A DNA stretch of 64,000 bases from an uncultured bacterium (lineage in GTDB: Bacteria; Patescibacteriota; JACMRA01), in the NCBI GenBank assembly GCA_963784355.1, contig CAWAQU010000007.1, positions 32,001 to 96,000 of the forward strand. The letters are read 5' to 3'. Numbering within the stretch: position 1 is the stretch's first letter; each line of letters opens with the position of its first letter. This document shows, piece after piece, positions 24,036 to 36,155 of this stretch. A program made the translations under genes and the position numbers. The notes beneath the pieces are model-generated. The model was not told where the DNA came from and ran no database searches. It worked only from the letters and a program-made list of their open reading frames with translations.

Positions 24036-24713
24036 ATGGCTTTAAATCAACCAAATCAATATCAACCAAATCCCTTTAATTATGTCTATCAAACACGGGA
24101 ACGCCGTAGGCCCATAAATTTACTCGAGTGGGCTCTTATATGTGTATCGATTCTAAGTCTTGTAGGAATTTTTTGGTGGGGATTTAATAATCAAGAAACA
24201 AAAAATAGAGATAATCAAAGATTGCATGATATAAATCAGATTACCATTGCTTTAGAAGAGTTTTATAAAAATAGTAATATTGTTCCAAGTAATAGATCAT
24301 ATCCAAAAGCAAAATGTTCTGAATCATTAAATGAAGTGGACTACGAAGATACTCTAAGAAGAGCTTTAACCGGAAATGCAAAGGAGCTTGATACGCACGT
24401 GTATATAAATCCAAATGATTTTCCTATAGATCAGTGGGGATCGTACTCAGTTACTTTTGGAGAAAGGGTAGTACCATATAGATGTACTGAAAAATTGAGT
24501 TTAAAATCTTCACCTGAAGGAGTAACAAAAATCTACAATGACAGTTTTCCAAGCTGCAATTTTAGTTCAACCAAAAGGTACTATAAGTGTTATATTTACA
24601 CTAGTAGTAATAATGGTGATACTTTTAAAATTGGGTACTATCAGGAATCATCGAACAATTTTATTATTTATAAAAAGTTTAGGGATGATAAAATTCAAGT
24701 TGAAATCAATTGA
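24036..24713 (+). CDS. Type IV pilin/pseudopilin-like protein
   Basis: NLLEWALICVSILSLVGIF hydrophobic helix with Glu, then RDNQRLHDINQITIALEEFY; paired Cys; lacks canonical G|F cleavage site. Confidence 0.65.
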   Translation: MALNQPNQYQPNPFNYVYQTRERRRPINLLEWALICVSILSLVGIFWWGFNNQETKNRDNQRLHDINQITIALEEFYKNSNIVPSNRSYPKAKCSESLNEVDYEDTLRRALTGNAKELDTHVYINPNDFPIDQWGSYSVTFGERVVPYRCTEKLSLKSSPEGVTKIYNDSFPSCNFSSTKRYYKCYIYTSSNNGDTFKIGYYQESSNNFIIYKKFRDDKIQVEIN

Positions 24714-24734: not shown

Positions 24735-25454
24735 TTAAGCAGATTGGTTTGTAATTTCAGGCTTTAAACTTATGATAGCAAGGAACATGGCCGCTTCAAA
24801 CAATAAACCAATTATTAAAACAAATATAAACCAGCTTAAGATATCTTGAGAACCGAATAATGCAGTAAGTACAATAATTGCAAAATATATCTCTTTTCTC
24901 TTTGACTTTAAAGTACTGGCTGAAACAATTTTCATTTTAATAAGACCAAATACAACTGTAGGTATTTGAAAAAACAAAATTGTGAATAGTGCGAGTGAAA
25001 AAACAAAGTTAGAGTATTCTGTTGAGGTAATTAAAAAACTAGTATTTTTGGGAGCGAAGTTGATTAAAAAGTCAAATGTGCTAGGAATTAAAGAAAAATA
25101 TGCATAGACCAGTGCTATAACTGTAAGGATTAGAGTACTTCCGCTATAATAATAAATTAACTTTTTTTCTTTTTCATTAAGTGCTTGAGCAATATAGCCC
25201 CAAAATATACTTACCAGAATAGGTAGAGTTATAATAGCGCCGGACAATACAACAACTTTAATCACAAAATTAAAGCTATCAGCCGGGGACAAAAAGTGAA
25301 GACTAAGGCCTTTACTTCTTAATGGCATTGTAAAAATATCTATCAGTCTATCAGTATTAAAAGCAGCTATTAGGCTACCAAGTCCCCAAACTATAGCTAT
25401 TTTTATTATTATTTTTTTTAAATCGTTTATATGCTCCCAAATATTTTCAGCCAT
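24735..25454 (-). CDS. tatC: Twin-arginine translocase subunit TatC
   Basis: IWEHINDLKK, LSPADSF, ALNEKEKK, FQIP, LFE motifs; 6 TM. Confidence 0.88.
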   Translation of the reverse strand: MAENIWEHINDLKKIIIKIAIVWGLGSLIAAFNTDRLIDIFTMPLRSKGLSLHFLSPADSFNFVIKVVVLSGAIITLPILVSIFWGYIAQALNEKEKKLIYYYSGSTLILTVIALVYAYFSLIPSTFDFLINFAPKNTSFLITSTEYSNFVFSLALFTILFFQIPTVVFGLIKMKIVSASTLKSKRKEIYFAIIVLTALFGSQDILSWFIFVLIIGLLFEAAMFLAIISLKPEITNQSA

Positions 25455-25669: not shown

Positions 25670-28069
25670 TTATAATCCTGCTTTATCCAGACGACCCTGT
25701 AATGCTTCAATAACCTGGTCTTGTTTTTCTAACAAACTCTTCTGTTCCTTTACTGCCTCGACTAAAGCTCCAACCAAACCATTGTAATTAACTGATTTAG
25801 TTTGATCTTTATCAGCTGCTGTTTTAACTGCTTCTGGAAATATTTTTTCTACGTCTTGAGCTAAGAGTCCGATTTGAGTAGATGTATCTTCACCATGATT
25901 TTCAGGATTTTTCCAGGTGTAGGTTACTCCTTTAAGAGAAGCAATTTTATCTAAGGCTGAAGTAATTGGTTTGATATTAGTTTTTAGCCTTTCATCAGAG
26001 TTTGGAGTAATAGTTCCAGTAGCTAAAATATTACCTACTACGTGAAGTTTTTCGGTAGGAGCCTCAGTTCCAATACCAAATTTTCCATCTGGAGTAATTG
26101 TAGGTTGCGCGCGCAGGTAAATAATACGAGAAGACGTTCCCCAGCTTACTCCTGGTCCTAACTCTGGTGCGTGCCAAGCTACATATAAGGGTTGTCCTGC
26201 TGAATTCCAACCTGTTGCATATTTTGTAATTGCAATATCTCTTACTGAATTAGCAGCTTTTTGGAATTTACACCATACCTCATAAAGGTTAGATGTATTG
26301 GTTTGACCATTACAAGTAACAATATCTTCAGTAGATTCAAACTCACAACCATAAAAGGTGATTGATCCACCCCAAGCTGTAAACAATGCAGCTTTATCCG
26401 ATCTAGGAGATAGGGGGCGAGTATCGTTAGCACTTTCAACTACCTTCACACTTTCTAAATTAAAATATGCATAATCCCTTACCAGTACTCTAGAAACCTC
26501 CCGGTAAATTCCATTAAGGGAGCCAACATATTGTTGCATATCAAATGTGTAAGTTGCATTCTTAGTCATTTTGATTACAGGCATGGATCCACTTTGCTCA
26601 GGATTTTTCCTAATGTACAAATATTGTTCAGGAGATAAATCAACAAAAGTATTCCAGGTGTACTCAGAATTAGTTTTTAAATACACTGTTAGTATAGCAT
26701 ATTTTTTTAAAAGCTTATTGATTTGTAAACCGAGATCCGTAGCTGTATCGTTAATAATTACTAATTTACTAGCCCATCTGGATTTGAGAAAATCAGCACT
26801 ACTATTTAGGCTAACAATAGGAGCTCTTCCTTTAGTAATACTTGCCAAGTTGCCTATATCAATATTTGCTTCACTGCTGATACCAATAGGGCTCATGATG
26901 CCACTGTATGAAGTTTGGGAACTATAGGAATTACTATCATCCCATATCGTCAGACCGTTATTTGATTTATATATCTTATATTGGGTACCGGCTGGAATAT
27001 TTTGCTGGTAATTAAAAGGAGAATCAACGATAACTTCAGTATCAGAGTTAATACTCACAATACGGCGCGTGGAATAGATTACCCCTGCATCAGTAACTTT
27101 TGCTCCAGGACTAGTAAACCATGGAGTAGTATCTGTGTTTAATAGTACTTCTATAGTATCACCAATTTCTACTTCGCTTAAAAATTTAGTACCTGCACCA
27201 ATGACTTTTTCCCATGATGTACTTACTGTACCAGAGACGTTAGGATTACTTTCAAGATTGAATTCCAATCCACTATTAGATACAGGCTCTCCAACAGATA
27301 AATTACCTGATGCACCAACAACAACTTTGCTTTTACCGTCAAATCCTTCAAATCCAGCAACAATGCCGGTATAGGTAAAGGCTCTGGCAGTACTATATCC
27401 ATTTGGAATATATTCATAGGCTGAGTTAGTTACATTTAAATTCCACTCACTTTGTTTATCGGATCCGTAATTACCAATCAAGCCGCGTGACATTTGCCCT
27501 GTACTTCCATTTAAGGAAATAAGTTGGGTAGTTTGATTAGAGATTACTATTAAATAACCAGCTTTTAATTGATTAAGATTATTGCCACTGATGTCTGCAC
27601 CACTTGTAGTAATTGTACCAGGTCCTGTAGCTTTGGTGCCATAAAATGGTTGATTAATAAAAGCTTCAGTGTTACTAATCACTTTTGTAATAATTCTAGA
27701 CTGTCCACCAGAGGTGATTACTGCTCCAGGCTGCAATTCTTCAACAAACTTTGTGCCCGTACCAATCAGTTTGATATCATCAGAAGTAACTTGTCCTGTT
27801 CCAGTACGCTGGTTTTGGATACTTTCCGCACGTTTTGTTGAATCAAAATTAACCCACTGGGTTCCGCTCCAGCGTTCAATCTTTCCAGTGTCGGAATTTA
27901 TTCCAGTAAGACCTTCGTTATCGGCTCCAAGTCCGGTTGGCCTATTAGTAATTGACCAGATGTTGATACCACCTTTATTTGGATCACTAATTTGTTTTAA
28001 ATAATCGTTTAAGATTTGTCCCCAGTTTCCATTGTCTTGACCGGGAATTGGTAAGCGTTTTGTTGGCAT
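25670..28069 (-). CDS. Tail-fibre-like adhesin with C-terminal intramolecular chaperone (peptidase S74)
   Basis: N-terminal RLPIPGQDNGNWGQILNDYL; repeated GxGTKF beta modules; FGIGTEAPTEKLHVVGNI; SDERLK...GLLAQDVE...VNYNGL S74 signature; no signal peptide. Confidence 0.85.
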   Translation of the reverse strand: MPTKRLPIPGQDNGNWGQILNDYLKQISDPNKGGINIWSITNRPTGLGADNEGLTGINSDTGKIERWSGTQWVNFDSTKRAESIQNQRTGTGQVTSDDIKLIGTGTKFVEELQPGAVITSGGQSRIITKVISNTEAFINQPFYGTKATGPGTITTSGADISGNNLNQLKAGYLIVISNQTTQLISLNGSTGQMSRGLIGNYGSDKQSEWNLNVTNSAYEYIPNGYSTARAFTYTGIVAGFEGFDGKSKVVVGASGNLSVGEPVSNSGLEFNLESNPNVSGTVSTSWEKVIGAGTKFLSEVEIGDTIEVLLNTDTTPWFTSPGAKVTDAGVIYSTRRIVSINSDTEVIVDSPFNYQQNIPAGTQYKIYKSNNGLTIWDDSNSYSSQTSYSGIMSPIGISSEANIDIGNLASITKGRAPIVSLNSSADFLKSRWASKLVIINDTATDLGLQINKLLKKYAILTVYLKTNSEYTWNTFVDLSPEQYLYIRKNPEQSGSMPVIKMTKNATYTFDMQQYVGSLNGIYREVSRVLVRDYAYFNLESVKVVESANDTRPLSPRSDKAALFTAWGGSITFYGCEFESTEDIVTCNGQTNTSNLYEVWCKFQKAANSVRDIAITKYATGWNSAGQPLYVAWHAPELGPGVSWGTSSRIIYLRAQPTITPDGKFGIGTEAPTEKLHVVGNILATGTITPNSDERLKTNIKPITSALDKIASLKGVTYTWKNPENHGEDTSTQIGLLAQDVEKIFPEAVKTAADKDQTKSVNYNGLVGALVEAVKEQKSLLEKQDQVIEALQGRLDKAGL

Positions 28070-28102
28070 ATATAATATATATTTTTTATATTTGTTTAAT
28101 TA

Positions 28103-28131
28103 ATTATATACTACTTTTTTAAAGTGTGCAA
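28103..28131 (-). promoter_or_regulatory. Sigma70 promoter for fibre gene
   Basis: TTGCAC-17 nt-TATAAT on minus strand. Confidence 0.7.
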
Positions 28132-28728
28132 GTCATAATTAAGATTTTATATTAATAACAAATTTTAAAGCATTTAGTCTTCGATAAAGCCCGTAATACC
28201 TATATAAATAGCAAATAGATACAGGGCTAATTAGATAAATTTTATCTTAAACATAGTATACAAAATATTTCAACTTTGCTAAATTTTACATAAAATATTG
28301 TTATATTCTATTGAATAAATTTGATATTTAATTACAGATATAATTTTTGTAATTTCTTTTTACCTTATGTAAAATATTGTTATTTACCGGATGAATTTTT
28401 TAGGTATACTCGTCTAATAACAATTCCTGCCTCGATAGGGTTTTAGTTTGATTTAGGAATGGTTTATCCGCAGCTGAGTTTGACTAACAGCGATTGTACA
28501 TTTGGCCGATTTATTAGTAGTTCAGAATACGTGGTTGCTTGCAACGAGGTTAAAACTGTAAGTTTTTGTTTCCAAAGCTTGCTTTGGTGCTTTGATTAAA
28601 CTTATTATGTATTCGCTACCTTTTTATAAGAAAGATATTAAAATAAAATGACAGAGTGACCGTTGCAAAAGCTAAAGTTGTCTTTTATGCTAAATTTAAA
28701 ATTACAAATTACAAGCTAGACAAAAGAA

Positions 28729-28749
28729 TACAACCCACGTGGGGTTGTA
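28729..28749 (-). terminator. Terminator of the tatA/surface-protein operon
   Basis: TACAACCC-acgtg-GGGTTGTA hairpin with adjacent U-rich tail on minus strand. Confidence 0.7.
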
Positions 28750-28810
28750 CTTGCTTTACCTTATAACGATTTGTTATAAATTAGAAGATTATAAAAGAAT
28801 GAAAAAACTA

Positions 28811-29569
28811 TTACTTTATCTTTATATTGTTTACGCTTTTGTTCCTATTTTTTGACACAAAGAACATTATTCCAAGAACGCCTATAAATAACAAACCTAA
28901 TAATAATATTGACCCTCCTCCTGTCCTCACCGTATCTAATATGGGTTGAATTTTGGCAACATTAACTGTGCTAGCAGTATTTACTAACTCACCATTACCT
29001 AATTTAGCTTTTACAGGTATGGATTGTCCTGCAGTACTTCCTGTACTTACGTTAGTACATACAATATTGTTATTCTCAAGTGTGCAGTTATTACTTAAAT
29101 TTGCGTCACCTATTGATATTCTTAATGGATTGGATGGATCAAGTGTTTTACCTGCGGGTAATTGACCTGTACAAGTAGTCGTTGTATTTACTACTAAATT
29201 ACTACCACAAGTGAAAACTAGAGTTGAAAGGTCCGCATCAGTTATGTAAACATTGCAGTCTCTATTATAAAAACTTTGATTATATTGGCCACAGCCATAA
29301 CCAGAAATTACAGATTGATTGGCACCTGCATTTTCAAGTTGCTTGTAATAAAAAAATCCGCCAAAAGCTCCTAATATAATTGTTAGTAAAATGAAAAAGG
29401 AAACAGAAGTTTTATTCTTTTGCCAATATTGTTTCATTTTTGGAGTTAAGCTTAGGGCCTTTTGTTTCAACATATCAACAAAGAGTAAGGAAGTTGAATC
29501 TTTTTTTGACTTATTTTGGTTGCTTTTTAGCGATTTTTTTAAATCTCGCTTTGGATTTTCACTTTTCAT
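28811..29569 (-). CDS. Surface protein with N-terminal TM, SGYGxxxY motif, Cys-containing Ig-like domain and sortase-like C-terminal signal
   Basis: SGYGCGQYNQSFY after TM; C-terminus TVRTGG + hydrophobic helix + KNRNK. Confidence 0.7.
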   Translation of the reverse strand: MKSENPKRDLKKSLKSNQNKSKKDSTSLLFVDMLKQKALSLTPKMKQYWQKNKTSVSFFILLTIILGAFGGFFYYKQLENAGANQSVISGYGCGQYNQSFYNRDCNVYITDADLSTLVFTCGSNLVVNTTTTCTGQLPAGKTLDPSNPLRISIGDANLSNNCTLENNNIVCTNVSTGSTAGQSIPVKAKLGNGELVNTASTVNVAKIQPILDTVRTGGGSILLLGLLFIGVLGIMFFVSKNRNKSVNNIKIK

Positions 29570-29652: not shown

Positions 29653-29847
29653 TTAATTTTTATCTTTATTTATAGTTTTCTCAGTATTACTGCCTAATGA
29701 TTCTTGAGTATCAGCAAGCTCTTTTTTAAAAGATTTAAATGCTTTACCTAAGCTTCCTGCTGTTTCTGGTAATTTATCTTTACCAAAGAATACTATAGCT
29801 AGAAAGCCTATAATTAGTAGTTCTGGTATACTTGGTCTTGGGAACAT
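29653..29847 (-). CDS. tatA: TatA/TatE family translocase subunit (copy 2)
   Basis: ELLIIGFLAIVFFGKDKLPETAGSLGKAFKSFKKE; ATG 29847 matches copy 1. Confidence 0.9.
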   Translation of the reverse strand: MFPRPSIPELLIIGFLAIVFFGKDKLPETAGSLGKAFKSFKKELADTQESLGSNTEKTINKDKN

Positions 29848-29870
29848 AATAAACACTTAATTAAATTATT

Positions 29871-30041
29871 TTATATCCCATATGGTGTTTGTCCATAACC
29901 GGAAGTTGATTTAGATTTATCTTTTTCAAGATTTTTACTAAATAGTGTATTGATACCGCCGGTAGCAAAAACTACAAAGAACCCGGTTAAGATTTTCAAA
30001 AAACTTCTTCTGCTTATTTTTTTTGTTTGTGTGCTTGACAT
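29871..30041 (-). CDS. Twin-arginine signal micro-protein (56 aa, not in ORF track)
   Basis: MSSTQTKKISRRSFLKILTGFFVVFATGGINTLFSKNLEKDKSKSTSGYGQTPYGI; perfect S-R-R-x-F-L-K motif plus h-region, between two tatA genes. Confidence 0.88.
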   Translation of the reverse strand: MSSTQTKKISRRSFLKILTGFFVVFATGGINTLFSKNLEKDKSKSTSGYGQTPYGI

Positions 30042-30077: not shown

Positions 30078-30317
30078 TTACTTAGCTAACTCTTTTGCAG
30101 AGTCTGCATTAATGCCTGCTTCTACTTTACTGTTATTTGATTTAGCTTCATTGATTTGATGTCCTAATGATTCTTGAGTATCAGCAAGCTCTTTTTTAAA
30201 AGATTTAAATGCTTTACCTAAGCTTCCTGCTGTTTCTGGTAATTTATCTTTACCAAAGAATACTATAGCTAGAAAGCCTATAATTAGTAGTTCTGGTATA
30301 CTTGGTCTTGGGAACAT
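30078..30317 (-). CDS. tatA: TatA/TatE family translocase subunit (copy 1)
   Basis: Same TM-FG-amphipathic helix pattern with a longer C-tail. Confidence 0.9.
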   Translation of the reverse strand: MFPRPSIPELLIIGFLAIVFFGKDKLPETAGSLGKAFKSFKKELADTQESLGHQINEAKSNNSKVEAGINADSAKELAK

Positions 30318-30369
30318 AATTGTATATTGTTATTTGTTTTTGTTAGTGTAAATTTACACCTATAGTAAT

Positions 30370-30400: not shown

Positions 30401-33400
30401 TTACTGTATTTTTACAGTCTTCTCTTGAGAAAAGCTTATACTATCAAGAGTTTTCAGAGATTGTATTGTGGATTTAGGGGATTTGAACTCTCCTTTATTT
30501 ATAACTCTTGCATAAAATACGATTGGTCCCTTACTCTCTTTACCAATACAAAAGCTTGTTTTTTGATTGTCGGTACTATATGGGTACCAGACTTCTTTGC
30601 TGTAAACCCATGCATCTCCGGGTGTTTTTGAGGTAGTTTTTAAGCCTGCAGGTAAATAGATAGAGGCTTCATAACAACTATTGTCGATTTTAGATTGATC
30701 TGCGACATAGTTAGCCTCTACTTTTACTAAATCAGCATCATTTAATGAATTTGTTTCCTTATCATTTTGATAAAATTTTAGATCCAAATTTAAATCTTTA
30801 TTGTTGGTAATGTCTTTGATTGGAGTTTGATAATTTGTAACAATACCTAATTGTCCGCTAATGACTTTTAAATCTAATTTAGCTAGGTCCTGTGAGTTTA
30901 TTTCAATGCTATAACTCTGGTTGTTTTCCAATTTTTTGGAGATATTTTGTTCGTTTTGTTTGAAATTAAATTCAACTTTTTGAGGTTTTTGATAATTTAG
31001 AATTGATTCAATGGTTTCAAGCTCAAGTCCGTAATAAATATTAGTTTTGGGTTGGTTAGCTAAATAGTATCGATATAGGTTTTTTGACTGATCCTCATTT
31101 AATTTTGCTCCAAGCAGGCTTTCAAGAAGAGTGTAATAGCTAATTTCATCAGGACTTTCTCCTATTTTTAAGCTAATGGACCTATCTTCCTTGATTTGAT
31201 ATTTGTTGAGTAAATCAGTGTAAATTTTTCTTGCGGCTTCTTTGTTTTCAGCTTCTATAAAAGCCAGAGCAGTAAATAGTTGCTCTTTAGGTGAAAGGTC
31301 TACAATGCCGGCGACTTCGTTGATTTGATTTAAAGCGTTGTCTTTTAGTTTACTTAAACCATACAATGCAATAATTTTACGTTCTCTAGACTCGTTTGGA
31401 TCAGTAATTACTTTATTTAAATAACTTTTTAGGGTTTCATTTTCAAATTTGTTTTTGCCTATTCCAATTGCATAGACACTTGTTTCCAGGTCTGGTGAGC
31501 TGTAAGGATAAATGGCCCAACCATTTGAAGGATTTTGGTAAAGTGTGTAGTCATTATTTGAGTTAATTGCGGCACTTTGGGTAAAGTATCGGTTTAAAAA
31601 CTCAGTAGAAATGTCTCTAGCAAGTTTTTGATCTAACCTATCGCCTGACTGATTTTGCAACTCGGTAAGTCTTTGGTAATATTCACTGCTTGTTTGGTTT
31701 TGGAAAGTTAGAGCAAGTTTTGTATTGTCAGAAACTTTGAATTTTTGGAGTTCTTCGGGGGTAAAGTACTTGACTTCAGTTTTAGTAATTTGGGGGCTTA
31801 AAACATTTATTTCTCTGGTTAGATTATCTACTTGATCACCTGATTTCGCTGCAATATTGAATTTGTGTTTGCCGATCGGTAAGTTTGGTAGCTCAAAATC
31901 TACCGGGTTGCTGCCTTTTGATTCAACTATCTTGTTTTTAATGTTTAAACTCTCGGAATTTATCGTGAAATTTACAGACTGATCTGCAGGTAAATTTGTA
32001 CCAAAACCCCTTAGCTTGATAGTCGGTTTGTCATTTTCATAGTAAATATCATTGATTACGGCTGTTGCAAAAAATGGCTGTTTAACATTGATATTAATTT
32101 TCCCAGAATCTGCTTCTAGTTTTTCTGTAATTGCCTCATAAGTAATTCTCCAAGATGTGAGATTATCTGGAAGTTGAAATTCCAACTTAGCTTTTCCTTG
32201 ATTGTCAGCTTTGACTTGTTTAAAGATTGCAGTGTCCAGAAATTTGTCTCTAAGGCTAGTTCCGCCACCGTTACCTTGACCACCATCTCCAGTTTGGCTC
32301 ATAAATACTTTGTGGGAAGCGTGTACAAACTCTAGTCCGGAATATAAATGCTTATATATATCCTCAAGTATATTTGGTTCATTTGGAGAATACTGCATGA
32401 TAGCTTCGTCTACAACTGAGATATTGACATTTGCTTCAATAGGATTATTTTCTTGGTTTTTTACGTCAATATCAAGCTTAACTGTATCTTTTGGTTTGTA
32501 TTCTTTTTTGTCTGGAGTTACGCTGATTTTTAATTTGCGGCTTTCTTTCTCAAATTCTAAGTTCCCAACCCCCGTTATGTTAAAGGTATTACCATCGAAA
32601 TAAACTCCAAGAAGGTTCATATTTGGTACAGAGTTTTCTTCAAATTTTAGTTCAAAATTAGGGTTGTTTTGTAATTTGTAGGATTTTTGACCATTTTGTA
32701 AATAACTTACCAAAAATTGATTTTGTTTGGTTTCAATTAACTCAGGTCCTTCAATCGGTTGTATTTTAAATTTTGCAGTTTCACCAATTTTATATTTTTT
32801 CTCTTCCATTTTTAGTGTGTAAATCATGTCTTTGGCTGTATAACCGCTTCCAGAATTTACTGTGCCGTATAAACCTCTTTTGAATTCAATTGGGCTGCCA
32901 TCTTTGTCTGTGGTCTCAATATTAATGTCAAAATTGTGTGTTGGATCGACCGGGAAATCAAGATTTATAAGTCCCTCTGTATTTGTACTTGGGCTGAAAC
33001 TTTTTTGGCCTACATACACACGGTTGTAACTATAATTATTTACGGTTTTTTTACTGATCAAGTCATAATATTGGCCGCTAACATAGCGCTCATATTTATA
33101 TTCAAAAAGTGTGATTTTTACTTTTTTATTAGCAACTGACACTCCTTTGAAATCTTTATCATCTTTCGCTGTGCCGTTATTTATTTTGCTTAAATCAATT
33201 TCATTAAGTCCGATTTTTATTGTGCCCTTATTTTGTTTAATTTCGGAATTTATATCCACGTAAGTTTTATTATCAAAGTAAAGCACGTTTTGGTATAAAG
33301 CACTATCAAACTCCTCAGAAAGTGCGGGGGTAATAGTTATGTAAGCTTGATTTATTCCATCATTACTCTGATCAGATTTTTTTACTAAGGGTACTTGAAA

Positions 33401-35461
33401 ATTAAATTTGCCCTCTTGGTTTGTTTTTATAATGGGAGTTTGATTATTCCCATAACTATAGCTAATATCAAGATTGTTTACTGGTGTTTCTTCAAAAAAA
33501 CTGGCTTGTCCTCGAATAGTGGCAGATTCACCGGCAAAATAAGCTTTCTTTTCGGGTCCAGCAGTTATTTTATACGAAGGGGCAATAAAGTTTTCTACTC
33601 TAAAGTAATTGGATTTAATGAGGTTATTTTGGGAATCAAAAATGTCTAGAATGTAATTTCCGGTGGTTGCATTATCGATTATAAAGTCAGAATTAAATAT
33701 ATTCTGTTCAGTTTTCAAGTTTTTGCTGATAATTTCAACTTTTTTATAACTCATGACGGAATAGTCTTGTTTACTAATCACAGCCTTGATTTCCTCTGAA
33801 TTTTTTGCGTTTACTCGGTTTTTAAGTACGCCCCAAAATTGAATTTTGTCGCTAGGCCTATAAATTGATCTGTCTGAATATAGATGACTCCAATAATCTT
33901 GGCTTTGATCGGTTGAGTAAATATTGAGGTTTTCAGTTCTTGTTTTAATTAAAATAAGTCTTTGATCCTCTGAAGTAATATTATAAAAATATATACTATC
34001 TTGAATTTTGGGAAAAATAGCTATACCCTGATCATTAGATGTAAAAAACTTATCTGAATTTGCCACTTGGATTTTTGCATTTGCTGCGGGAGATTTGGTA
34101 GTTAGATTTTGTAACCAGATTAGATTTTCAGTTTTAGTTTCCTGTATAAAACCGACTAAATTGGTAATCTGCAAAATTGACTGTACTTTTTTGCCGTTTG
34201 ATTCCACCTCAAGTAGATAAATACCTTTTTCTAATCCTTTTGTTGTATCAATATATTGTTCACTAGGTGTTGTTTTGGTAATAGTGTAATTTTGTGAACT
34301 TACTTTGTTTAGTTCTGTTGTATTTGGATAGAAAGTAGTAGGTTGGAAATTTTGCCAGTTATTGAAATTGCTGATGTAATTATTTAAGGTTGTGTTTATT
34401 TGTTCTTCAGACTTGAAATTGTAGATACTAACAGTGGTTTTAAGGTCTTCAAAGGTACTAAAAACCGGTACCACGATTTGCTCTGCAGGTTTGTATTCAA
34501 TAAATGTATTAATTAAACTAAATTCTTTATACTCCGGATCATCATTAATTGTTTGAAACTGAAATAAATAATCTTGAGCTAATTTTCCTGAATTATCTTT
34601 AGTAGTCAGCCCTTGTTTGATTTTTACAGTGTATACTGTATTTTTCTCCAGATTTTTTGGAATGAAAACTGCTACACGGCCATTTCTTTTAAAAGTGCCT
34701 TCAACTTTTGGTGTAATCTCAAAAAACTGATCTATGTCATTGTAACTATCTGTGTTAAATACCACTTCAATGCCTGTGTTTGCCGGTACACCATTTACTT
34801 TATTTGTAGGTGTAGTACCAAGTATTCTAAATTCATCTTTTACTTGATAGGCCCAACTCAAATTTTTAGCGCTTGTTACGTCGTTTTTGTCAGGGATTAC
34901 CTTTAATTCAAACTTAACTACTTCATTGGCAGTTGGTTTTTGAGTTAGATTTAATTCATAGTTAGTATCACTATTTTTTTTCAGTTCATAGGGTAGGGAA
35001 GGAGTAAGTTTCAAATTATCTTTAATCTGTTTTTCAGTTATGCTGTTTGCTGAAGTTATTGTATATGTAGAGTTAGAATCAACTCCCAAGTTTGTTTTTG
35101 TATTTGGTTTGATTTCGATCTCTTGAGCGCTGGCGTTGATTGGAGAGAAAGGATTAATAATATTAGCTAAGTTGTTTGTAATATTTTTACCTGCTCCGGC
35201 TTGACTAAGCACTAAGGCAATTAATATTCCGACTACAACTAGACTACTTGCAAATCCTAAACCTAACACAATAATTCTATTTGAGAAGAGGGATTTCAAA
35301 TTTTCTCGGGTTTTTGCAAATATATTTTGGGTTTTCAGATTAGTTTTTACAAATTGATTTAGACTGCTTTTCTTAGATTTTAGATAAGATGTATTTTTTT
35401 CAAATACAGGTTGCAAGGATTCTTCCTGTAAGTCTTCTCTATTTGGTAAAAATTTCGACAT
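30401..35461 (-). CDS. Membrane-anchored alpha-2-macroglobulin family protein with N-terminal Ig-like (Big_5/SbsA-like) domains
   Basis: SDRSIYRPSDKI (MG2), YKPKDTV, SVVDEA, LRDKFLDTA, LPDNLTSWRI, YARVINKGEF. Confidence 0.9.
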   Translation of the reverse strand: MSKFLPNREDLQEESLQPVFEKNTSYLKSKKSSLNQFVKTNLKTQNIFAKTRENLKSLFSNRIIVLGLGFASSLVVVGILIALVLSQAGAGKNITNNLANIINPFSPINASAQEIEIKPNTKTNLGVDSNSTYTITSANSITEKQIKDNLKLTPSLPYELKKNSDTNYELNLTQKPTANEVVKFELKVIPDKNDVTSAKNLSWAYQVKDEFRILGTTPTNKVNGVPANTGIEVVFNTDSYNDIDQFFEITPKVEGTFKRNGRVAVFIPKNLEKNTVYTVKIKQGLTTKDNSGKLAQDYLFQFQTINDDPEYKEFSLINTFIEYKPAEQIVVPVFSTFEDLKTTVSIYNFKSEEQINTTLNNYISNFNNWQNFQPTTFYPNTTELNKVSSQNYTITKTTPSEQYIDTTKGLEKGIYLLEVESNGKKVQSILQITNLVGFIQETKTENLIWLQNLTTKSPAANAKIQVANSDKFFTSNDQGIAIFPKIQDSIYFYNITSEDQRLILIKTRTENLNIYSTDQSQDYWSHLYSDRSIYRPSDKIQFWGVLKNRVNAKNSEEIKAVISKQDYSVMSYKKVEIISKNLKTEQNIFNSDFIIDNATTGNYILDIFDSQNNLIKSNYFRVENFIAPSYKITAGPEKKAYFAGESATIRGQASFFEETPVNNLDISYSYGNNQTPIIKTNQEGKFNFQVPLVKKSDQSNDGINQAYITITPALSEEFDSALYQNVLYFDNKTYVDINSEIKQNKGTIKIGLNEIDLSKINNGTAKDDKDFKGVSVANKKVKITLFEYKYERYVSGQYYDLISKKTVNNYSYNRVYVGQKSFSPSTNTEGLINLDFPVDPTHNFDINIETTDKDGSPIEFKRGLYGTVNSGSGYTAKDMIYTLKMEEKKYKIGETAKFKIQPIEGPELIETKQNQFLVSYLQNGQKSYKLQNNPNFELKFEENSVPNMNLLGVYFDGNTFNITGVGNLEFEKESRKLKISVTPDKKEYKPKDTVKLDIDVKNQENNPIEANVNISVVDEAIMQYSPNEPNILEDIYKHLYSGLEFVHASHKVFMSQTGDGGQGNGGGTSLRDKFLDTAIFKQVKADNQGKAKLEFQLPDNLTSWRITYEAITEKLEADSGKININVKQPFFATAVINDIYYENDKPTIKLRGFGTNLPADQSVNFTINSESLNIKNKIVESKGSNPVDFELPNLPIGKHKFNIAAKSGDQVDNLTREINVLSPQITKTEVKYFTPEELQKFKVSDNTKLALTFQNQTSSEYYQRLTELQNQSGDRLDQKLARDISTEFLNRYFTQSAAINSNNDYTLYQNPSNGWAIYPYSSPDLETSVYAIGIGKNKFENETLKSYLNKVITDPNESRERKIIALYGLSKLKDNALNQINEVAGIVDLSPKEQLFTALAFIEAENKEAARKIYTDLLNKYQIKEDRSISLKIGESPDEISYYTLLESLLGAKLNEDQSKNLYRYYLANQPKTNIYYGLELETIESILNYQKPQKVEFNFKQNEQNISKKLENNQSYSIEINSQDLAKLDLKVISGQLGIVTNYQTPIKDITNNKDLNLDLKFYQNDKETNSLNDADLVKVEANYVADQSKIDNSCYEASIYLPAGLKTTSKTPGDAWVYSKEVWYPYSTDNQKTSFCIGKESKGPIVFYARVINKGEFKSPKSTIQSLKTLDSISFSQEKTVKIQ

Positions 35462-35474
35462 ATTTGAGAGATAA

Positions 35475-36155
35475 TTAAATTTTTTGTTGGTTTTTGGTTA
35501 TATTTGTAGATTCAGTAGAATTAAAAAATGATGGTTTTGCTGGTAAAGTTGTATTTTGCTCAGTAATATAAACTTCTGTTTCGCTTGAATTTGTTGTGTT
35601 TTCGGACTGTTTAAAACTAATCCATAATTCCGTACAGCCTGACTTTAGCTTAGAAAATGATCTTTTTAGTTTTTGGCGCACTGTTGCTGATTTTAAATTG
35701 TATTTTATACCGATTTGGGTACTGTTTTTATTATCAATAATCGATTCTGCAACAATATTATAATCTTCACCTGTAAGTTGTTTTTTACAACATTCTATTA
35801 GCTGTTGAATTTTGGCTTCATAATGCTCGCTATATTTATTTTCATTTTCTTCAACACTTTCAAAATGTGCGTAGTCTTGAGTCTGAAAATCTGTATTTTC
35901 TTCAAGTATTACAGTAAAAGGTGAGCGATTTTTGTTATCTATAAATTTGTATTGTTGATTTTTAGCAGTTTGCCAGATAAATCCCTTTGGATTCTCCACA
36001 TTTTCGGCTAGGAAAAAAGCGGTAAGAACATTGGAAGTAAGGTCTTCTACATCTTGCTGATTGTTTAGGCGCCTGTAGAAATATCCATAAACTAAAGGAT
36101 ACCAATAATCCCAAGCCTCACTGATATCTTTTTTTGAAATTTCAGAGTCGAGCAT
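35475..36155 (-). CDS. ECF-type RNA polymerase sigma factor
   Basis: VYGYFYRRL..QQDVEDLTSNV, FIWQTAKN (region 2); QIG...SATVRQKLKRSFSKL (region 4). Confidence 0.85.
   Translation of the reverse strand: MLDSEISKKDISEAWDYWYPLVYGYFYRRLNNQQDVEDLTSNVLTAFFLAENVENPKGFIWQTAKNQQYKFIDNKNRSPFTVILEENTDFQTQDYAHFESVEENENKYSEHYEAKIQQLIECCKKQLTGEDYNIVAESIIDNKNSTQIGIKYNLKSATVRQKLKRSFSKLKSGCTELWISFKQSENTTNSSETEVYITEQNTTLPAKPSFFNSTESTNITKNQQKI

Follow-up and report, generated by a model that had tools for sequence, protein, structure and literature searches.

The window analysed here is a 64-kb stretch of DNA (G000:C7:32001-96000) from a Patescibacteria genome designated G000, which comprises 1.14 Mb at 33% GC and is 81% complete. 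A large share of the diversity of bacteria falls to the Patescibacteria, the candidate phyla radiation (CPR). These ultra-small cells live in attachment to other microbes, and their ways of recognising and holding hosts are poorly understood. The target gene (28811-29569, minus strand) encodes a 252-residue surface protein, termed the YG-head protein; this open reading frame (ORF) was found as described in an earlier, sequence-only reading of the DNA. It lies in a minus-strand cluster in which an alpha-2-macroglobulin-like gene is followed by a TatA gene (for twin-arginine translocation, Tat), the gene of a Tat-signal microprotein, a second TatA gene, the target, a gap of 740 nt, the gene of an S74 tail-fibre-like protein, and TatC. 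The target and the microprotein share a short Gly/Tyr peptide, the YG tag, which is conserved in both protein families and may connect Tat export of the fibre with its display on a sortase-anchored stalk.

The target protein and its sorting signal

The target comprises a signal or transmembrane (TM) segment, the YG head, one Ig-like domain and a sorting signal. Residues 1-80 (29330-29569, minus strand) consist of a basic region, assigned to the cytoplasm (residues 1-52), followed by a hydrophobic helix (residues 53-80), as indicated by the sequence and by an AlphaFold2 (AF2) model, in which helices span residues 28-39, 44-51 and 53-80. We infer that this segment is a Sec-type signal or signal anchor without an RR motif; cleavage is predicted, with a possible site, AGA, at residues 81-83, seven residues ahead of the YG motif. 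The YG head (SGYGCGQYNQSFYNRDC, residues 89-105; 29255-29305, minus strand) contains YG-x3-Y[GN] units between two cysteines, an arrangement kept in 18 head proteins. Its SGYG begins at residue 89, some 14-15 residues past the hydrophobic helix (residues 53-80 in the AF2 model). The sequence-only reading had placed the motif right after the N-terminal TM segment, a slightly loose wording given the 8-21 residues that separate the two in the heads. In the monomer AF2 model, the predicted local distance difference test (pLDDT) score was below 50 at residues 84-92 and 95-102, which suggests a flexible head.

The stalk (residues 107-207; 28949-29251, minus strand) is a single copy of a lineage-specific, four-cysteine Ig-like beta-sandwich, which was modelled confidently (pLDDT ~96). 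Its top Foldseek matches were domain D4 of ICAM-1 (E 9.6e-4) and the Ig-like domains of ICAM-5, Rib and filamin, so that the modelled fold is Ig-like and generic, without specific family assignment. No Pfam or NCBIfam family could be assigned to the target; matches to MRVI1, PDR, BptA and TuaF lay far under the cut-offs and over the TM region, and were dismissed. A first, non-exhaustive homologue search returned only the target itself, and an exhaustive search of 1.84 billion representative proteins yielded only 42 relatives at E<=1e-3, all via residues ~107-207. The same domain occurs as tandem repeats in large surface proteins of relatives.

The C-terminal sorting signal (28814-28933, minus strand), assigned from the sequence and the AF2 model, consists of TVRTGG (residues 213-218), the hydrophobic segment GSILLLGLLFIGVLGIMFFV (AF2 helix 218-248) and the positively charged tail SKNRNKSVNNIKIK. 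Its description as an LPxTG-like signal is supported, as homologues carry LPRTGG, LARTGG, TVRTGG and similar motifs. Compared with LPXTG, T and G are retained in the target motif, and L and P are substituted. Among the 42 homologues, 23 carry xxR[TS]G[GA] followed by a hydrophobic stretch (LPRTGG in six, TPRTGG in three, TVRTGG and LARTGG in two each, and others), with the Arg and the first Gly invariant throughout. Because of this sharing, the signal, written [LT]xR[TS]GG, is on sequence grounds a lineage-wide, lineage-specific variant of LPXTG. The sequence-only reading had proposed a look for other xxRTGG proteins, and a scan of all ORFs of G000 retrieved further proteins with xxR[TS]GG: 6-7 ORFs end in [TL][VI]R[TS]GG, a hydrophobic stretch and a basic tail, with the motifs TIRSGG, LIRTGG, TVRTGG (three times), TVRSGG and perhaps IRKSGG. 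The cut-off of the LPXTG-anchor model TIGR01167 was passed by the head orthologue of G007 (16.6 bits) and by a mini-head of G102 (22.7 bits).

A sortase, likewise proposed as a check, was found over the PF04203 cut-off in 25/25 family relatives and as a contig-end fragment in G000, where the single match (C1:9-200) reached 23.9 bits versus a cut-off of 26.6. The sortases of the relatives pass the general sortase model, with no named class over its cut-off. Taken with the sorting signal, this makes it very probable that the target is anchored to the wall by a sortase.

The YG tag in the microprotein and head families

The microprotein (56 aa; 29871-30041, minus strand) was confirmed at the place where the sequence-only reading had put it, two genes upstream of the target with one TatA gene between. 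It follows the Tat motif S/T-R-R-x-F-L-K with SRRSFLK and an h-region (ILTGFFVVFATGGINTLF), which lead through a linker to the C-terminal SGYGQTPYGI; the YG tag proper, GYGQTPYGI (residues 48-56; 29874-29900, minus strand), is conserved in the alignment. The Tat-signal model TIGR01409 gave no match at E<=1 on the G000 microprotein and 14.7 bits (cut-off 16.7) on the G019 copy. A match to TIGR02811 (17.8 bits versus 48.45) was put down to generic Tat-signal similarity. No other ORF of the assembled genome has a convincing RR signal: of the two further matches to the RR pattern, one is a fragment of a cytoplasmic enzyme and the other lies on contig C13, which is odd in composition. Of note, this 26.1-kb contig has 38.5% GC versus 32.5-34.8% in the other twelve, and its 96-aa ORF looks strongly like an RR-signal protein; on its composition, the contig may be a contamination of the bin.

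The microprotein family was assembled from 11 aligned sequences, one frameshifted copy and further members from metagenome contigs and other families. The frameshift lies in the G004 assembly (L028:9339-9640), where the expected tail, ending in SGYGNSRYGY and a stop codon, sits in another frame. The consensus reads [ST][RK][RK]xFLK, replaced by DR[KQ]xFL in other families, then an h-region that often ends in SFGG, a linker and [GS][YF]GxxxYG. G50, Y54 and G55 are invariant in 11/11 aligned microproteins, and in all 11 a single residue separates the motif from the stop codon; microproteins of some other families (G102, G288, G386 and G187) have 3-15 extra residues past the tag. The family profile matched 17/401 sampled genomes of the phylum, ten in the family of G000, itself included, and seven elsewhere. 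Two microprotein-like copies were found in G014 and four in G386.

Within G000, the pattern SGYG...Y occurs once, in the target itself, among 867 ORFs of at least 120 aa, and GYG...Y occurs four times. SGYG...Y arose in a fraction of 0.0001 of 20,000 shuffles of the target, and the match between the two proteins of this one genome is only suggestive because any 4-mer common to both arises in 30% of shuffles. Conservation was thus sought in orthologues, as the sequence-only reading had advised, and the motif proved to be kept in both protein families. The 18 head proteins bear [YF][GS]x3[YF][GN] soon after an N-terminal hydrophobic segment, at a distance of 8-21 residues in 16 of the 17 for which such a segment was detected. 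Most have a Cys at the first variable position, another Y[GN] unit and a closing Cys, and the spacing between the two aromatic-Gly units equals that of the microprotein. When the microproteins were compared with the head N-termini in hhalign, linker and tag were aligned with a probability of 77% and an E-value of 2e-5.

The YG head behaves as an independent module, since it is mounted on unrelated stalks: Ig-like repeats (G000, G007, G004, G019 and G012), Ser-rich low-complexity regions (G021 and G288) or a region with a dockerin-like C-terminus (G023). In the 90-aa mini-head of G102, a signal (AFA-Q) and AYGEGAFGTSIYNG are joined by a 25-residue linker to LPVTG, a TM segment and RRRH. Several heads (G023, G288, P0025 and P0037) have no sorting signal. 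That of G023 (L072:6779-7645), encoded directly after TatA-TatC, ends in repeated dockerin-type segments resembling DVNLDGTVDSLDRT, which suggests an alternative anchoring of the same head. A 611-aa protein of G013 (L075:1186-3020) carries the head GYGCYDYGSGDYGNSITSC with the motif at residue 106, after an extra IPT-like N-terminal domain, so that the head is not always at the mature N-terminus.

A degenerate DNA pattern for YGCxx[YF] gave 63 matches in the order, about the level of the reversed-pattern control; among the 39 of these that were read, true heads were confined to genomes with TatC or the microprotein. As judged from the alignments, the sharing of the tag is not due to chance, and the tag is probably a functional element common to both families.

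Signal-less fibres, gene neighbourhood and co-occurrence

Past the 740-nt gap lies the gene of a 799-aa, signal-less, tail-fibre-like protein (25670-28069, minus strand), which ends in a Peptidase_S74 intramolecular-chaperone domain (PF13884; 78.2 bits versus a cut-off of 22, residues 691-749). It matched PHROG tail-fibre families down to E 3e-33, and its PDB sequence matches were MYRF and the chaperone domain of the T5 fibre. Fibres with an S74 chaperone, like beta-helix tailspikes, form folded trimers before they come into use. The conserved N-domain of the fibre (~73 aa; residues 1-75, MPTKRLPIPGQDNGNWGQILNDYL...; 27845-28069, minus strand), which was modelled by AF2 at a pLDDT of 70.6, is the proposed receptor of the YG tag. 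Proteins with this domain lack a signal peptide and begin with the domain at residue 1; the parts past it vary, including S74 fibres and INVKDYGAVGDG beta-helix-like tailspikes, with the genes in tandem arrays. The N-domain family is expanded in some genomes of ~1 Mb, with 25 matches in G015, 19 in G014 and 12 in G008 (e.g. L112:1449-11181 and L113:2430-9651). Many arrayed genes start with INVKDYGAVGDG, like pectate-lyase-fold tailspikes, and from their sequences the arrays look like a polymorphic surface or depolymerase repertoire. Prediction of a complex of three fibre N-domains (residues 1-110) with microprotein residues 27-56 gave 0.26 and 0.14 versus a mark of 0.32, and weighs neither way.

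Across genomes, the microprotein gene lies next to a head gene in eight loci (G000, G007, G004, G019, G012, L114, G288 and G102); the pairs are divergent in G288 and G102, have one TatA gene between them in G000, and are direct in the others. In G021 and G023, TatA-TatC are followed directly by the head and the microprotein is encoded elsewhere. The microprotein adjoins TatA/TatC in 12 genomes, five of the family (G000, G007, G004, G008 and G025) and seven of other families (G288, G247, G326, G386, G187, G151 and G261). Fibre genes are near it in G000, in G012 (in the order fibre, microprotein, head) and, as two genes each, in G247, in G102 (after the microprotein) and in G007 (upstream of TatA), and three tandem microprotein-then-fibre pairs occur in L115 and one in L117. 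L115 (647-8846) is a metagenome contig, on which ATPase-like ORFs (433 and 421 aa) stand between the microprotein-fibre units in a layout resembling a cassette array. TatA as a single query on metagenomes gave 364 pattern sites, none of which was confirmed.

Co-occurrence was assessed in 27 genomes of the order, here equal to the whole class, with TatC and the microprotein called at E<=0.01. Each was present in 12 of the 27, both together in 11 and neither in 14; TatC stands without the microprotein in G015, where the gene is at a contig end, and the microprotein without TatC in G012, which is 68% complete. One of the 11, G013, counts by a weak, partial match (E 0.009). The fibre N-domain, searched with its first 80 residues, was found in 12/27 genomes at 1 to 25 copies each; ten of these 12 have TatC, and 13 genomes have neither. 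Within the order, the microprotein, the head, TatA/TatC and the fibre N-domain proteins thus largely co-occur.

The remaining parts of the cluster are as follows. TatA is present as copy 1 (79 aa; 30078-30317, minus strand; PF02416, 51.1 bits) and copy 2 (67 aa; 29653-29856, minus strand; PF02416, 52.3 bits), and TatC has 239 aa (24735-25454, minus strand; PF00902, 136.2 bits). The 5' parts of both TatA genes form a perfect 158-nt direct repeat (29693-29850 and 30163-30320; 470 nt apart), which stems from a very recent duplication or else from the assembly itself as an artefact, and the two proteins differ in their C-terminal tails only. A terminator-like hairpin found in a consensus scan (28727-28751, minus strand), with a 10-bp stem, four GC pairs and a T-rich tail, lies ~60 nt past the target stop codon and likely ends a TatA-microprotein-TatA-target transcription unit. 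In the 740-nt gap (28070-28810), no ORF reaches 60 aa, and neither a tRNA nor an Rfam match at E<=0.1 was found.

Directly upstream of the Tat cluster, the alpha-2-macroglobulin-like gene (30401-35461, minus strand) encodes 1686 aa with an N-terminal TM segment and A2M_BRD, MG2, A2M and Big_5 domains, and is preceded by the gene of a small sigma-70 region-2 protein (35475-36155, minus strand). Convergent to TatC is the gene of a 225-aa protein with one N-terminal TM segment, several Cys residues and no family match (24036-24713, plus strand). A prophage origin of the cluster was ruled out by the flanking genes, which encode ClpP, ParA, a release factor, EF-P, a sigma factor, IleRS and M16 peptidases.

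Interpretation and comparison with known systems

A plausible mechanism, which fits best and accounts for more of the observations than any other, is the docking hand-off proposed in the sequence-only reading, an interpretation that is partly supported. The target would be exported via Sec and fixed to the wall by the sortase through its degenerate LPXTG signal. In its mature form, it would be a short stalk with one Ig-like domain, whose free N-terminal tip is a flexible, Cys-bracketed peptide of the type GYGCxxY[GN]...Y[GN]..C. The YG tag would be the ligand of the 73-aa N-domain found on signal-less tail-fibre-like or tailspike-like proteins, here on the 799-aa S74 fibre. While still in the cytoplasm, this fibre, once folded, would bind the tag of the microprotein and leave through TatA/TatC as a hitchhiker. 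Outside, its N-domain would bind the tag of the sortase-anchored stalk, whether through sites left free in the trimer or once the carrier has been lost, and the cell would thereby bear wall-mounted fibres.

We assign a probability of about 0.35 to the complete reading, namely that Patescibacteria possess a fibre-display system in which a free-standing Tat signal with a 9-residue YG tag escorts phage-derived fibres and the same tag on a stalk serves as the docking peg. Its parts differ in strength. The microprotein would be a carrier because a bare Tat signal with a terminal tag has no other obvious use for an exporter of folded proteins, and the signal-less fibre is its natural candidate cargo because the fibre family co-occurs and pairs with the microprotein; on these gene-level grounds, the odds on Tat hitchhiking of the fibres are about even. 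Docking of the fibre on the target, for which gene neighbourhood and co-occurrence give strong, contextual support, is more tentative and falls a little short of even odds, and a hand-off in the sense of an ordered exchange is pure conjecture.

Several observations weigh against this reading. The twin arginine is not strict: the family microproteins have RR in 6/11, KR in 3/11 and KK in 2/11, and those of other families have mostly R-K or R-Q at this site. KK, which normally blocks Tat export in model bacteria, is found in the copies of G012 and G025, the latter encoded immediately after TatC. Solitary microprotein genes occur in G005 (with a near-copy in L116), in G014 (two tandem copies), in G021 and in G023. 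TatC occurs without the fibre N-domain in G023 and G025, and the N-domain without TatC in G011 and G012, all four genomes being 64-74% complete. Relatedness among the genomes means that they cannot count as independent, so that the co-occurrence figures exaggerate the support and represent a pattern rather than a test. By eye, the variable tag positions show no obvious co-variation between the microprotein and the head of the same genome. The head is disordered in the monomer model, which does not give its bound shape, and Foldseek returned no significant structural relative for the fibre N-domain, with a phage tailspike N-terminus as its best match at E 0.52. With regard to anchoring, TIGR01167 scores 10.7 bits on the target versus a cut-off of 15.9, and the G000 sortase gene is incomplete, being cut by the contig end after the His motif GNSYIIGHSS.

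The microprotein could instead be an accessory part of the Tat system or a self-contained Tat substrate, with the YG tag of both proteins binding a partner other than a fibre, such as a component of the wall or S-layer, the translocon's outer face or a host-cell surface, and with the target as an ordinary sortase-anchored adhesin whose tip happens to bear the same binding peptide. We consider this somewhat unlikely. It would agree with the relationship to NCBIfam NF038009, "twin-arginine translocation system-associated protein", which matches the G288 and G102 microproteins over their full length (69.7 and 63 bits), with the TatA-TatC-microprotein operon conserved in 12 genomes, and with the degenerate RR motif; moreover, G025, G386, G187, G261 and G151 show no fibre or head gene within the 3-16 kb examined. 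Yet the three microprotein-fibre pairs of L115 have no Tat gene in 8.8 kb and, together with the multiple microprotein copies in G014 and G386, are more easily reconciled with cargo-specific adaptors than with a translocon subunit. The topology predicted from the sequence, with a basic N-terminus, one TM segment and the C-terminus outside, is that of a signal peptide and unlike that of TatA/TatB, and an accessory role leaves aside that the fibre N-domain proteins are signal-less and co-occur with TatC. Common descent without a shared ligand or hand-off, by which the microprotein arose from the truncated 5' end of a head gene or the reverse, would require that the motif be kept for a reason private to each protein, e.g. 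processing near the membrane. Such an origin would explain a colinear BLASTP alignment of the microprotein with target residues 57-97 (TM segment, GG, linker and SGYG..Y; 33% identity over 45 residues, with a non-significant E-value of 0.56), the profile match at E 2e-5 and the position of both motifs ~14 residues past the TM segment in G000. It is itself compatible with a shared ligand; as a sufficient account it is improbable, given that purifying selection has preserved G, Y and G at the extreme C-terminus of proteins of 50-70 aa in many families and that they recur on heads with unrelated stalks, and that the 90-aa G102 protein, almost only tag and LPVTG anchor, is hard to explain unless the tag is the function.

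Sortases, such as SrtA of S. aureus, accept N-terminal glycine nucleophiles, and the head, once the signal peptide is cleaved, might act as an N-terminal, Gly-rich nucleophile, with TVRT of one subunit linked to the head of the next in covalent head-to-tail polymers, or with TVRT linked to the microprotein. In favour, small-x-small sites lie 0-8 residues ahead of the motif in 8/18 heads; against it, Gly is rarely the predicted first residue at these distances, several heads (G023, G288, P0025 and P0037) are without a sorting signal, the tag of the microprotein is C-terminal and offers no amine, and no pilin-type sortase class was recognised; we consider this very improbable. A chance likeness of two short Gly/Tyr-rich strings would be in line with the 30% of shuffles that yield a shared 4-mer. 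It has a negligible probability and is effectively refuted, on sequence, by conservation of the position of the motif in both protein families, which spans at least eight taxonomic families of the phylum, and by the repeated adjacency of the genes.

If the display reading holds, these episymbionts would have a modular, swappable apparatus for host attachment or depolymerisation, made of defined, testable parts: a ligand of 9 residues, a receptor domain of 73 aa that is carried by up to 25 variable fibres in a genome, and a wall anchor. Tat, sortase and phage tail fibres would be joined by one 8-residue peptide tag, and minimal genomes would have a reason to retain a Tat system. The microprotein would be the smallest known Tat carrier, and tag and receptor a natural pair, possibly useful for surface display. 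A conservative reading still yields the lineage-wide LPXTG variant [LT]xR[TS]GG and the YG head as a new N-terminal module. TatA and TatC have been recorded as present in Patescibacteria (PMC9166423), and no explanation was found in the literature consulted of why some members keep Tat without respiratory enzymes. Literature searches likewise returned no description of Tat export of tail-fibre-like proteins or of a YG tag in CPR.

Among known systems, the target is closest to the LPXTG sortase substrates of Gram-positive bacteria (TIGR01167; Rib-domain proteins), with which it shares the succession of motif, hydrophobic segment and basic tail, a putative N-terminal export signal and the Ig-like stalk; the presence of sortase genes in all relatives of G000 adds to the likeness. 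It differs from them in that the lineage motif has a fixed Arg and a doubled Gly, that TVRTGG is without L and P, and that the functional tip would be a 17-residue peptide rather than a folded domain. Tat-dependent sortase substrates have been described along with hitchhiker export (PMC10924467). In the latter, a small, signal-bearing partner carries a signal-less folded protein, as in the small and large subunits of hydrogenases, in PaoABC and in FAD-glucose dehydrogenase with its hitchhiker subunit (PMC10924467, PMC4273604 and PMC6719666). The present cluster resembles these in that a small Tat-signal protein is encoded beside TatA/TatC and beside signal-less proteins that would have to fold or oligomerise before export, i.e. 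trimeric S74 fibres and beta-helix tailspikes. In contrast, known carriers are folded subunits, often with cofactors. The microprotein, as a carrier, would amount to a signal peptide with a 9-residue tag, and its cargo would be a phage-like fibre; RR is often RK, KR or KK, and the putative pair is recognised from gene pairing (L115, L117, G012 and G102) and co-occurrence.

NF038009 likewise comprises proteins of ~70 aa, and has full-length matches to microproteins of other Patescibacteria families (G102 and G288), whose genes adjoin TatA/TatC. Unlike its members, the sampled Patescibacteria do not reach its 100-bit cut-off (0/401 genomes), and the G000 microprotein scores 12.5 bits, so that the latter is, by sequence, distantly related. 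The Tat link of a related small-protein family had thus already been noticed by curators, who assigned no function, and the family name itself was not found in the papers searched. The N-terminal anchors of phage tailspikes and tail fibres (CBA120 TSP3, HylP and Mtd) offer a parallel for the fibres, as a short, conserved N-domain is followed by highly variable receptor-binding or depolymerase parts in tandem arrays, and the top structural matches of the fibre N-domain, weak and not significant, go to such N-termini. Unlike those of phages, the fibre genes are chromosomal and set among housekeeping genes, and their links are with Tat and sortase instead of a virion. Overall, the target may be a new variant of a sortase-anchored surface protein, and the system that surrounds it may be new.

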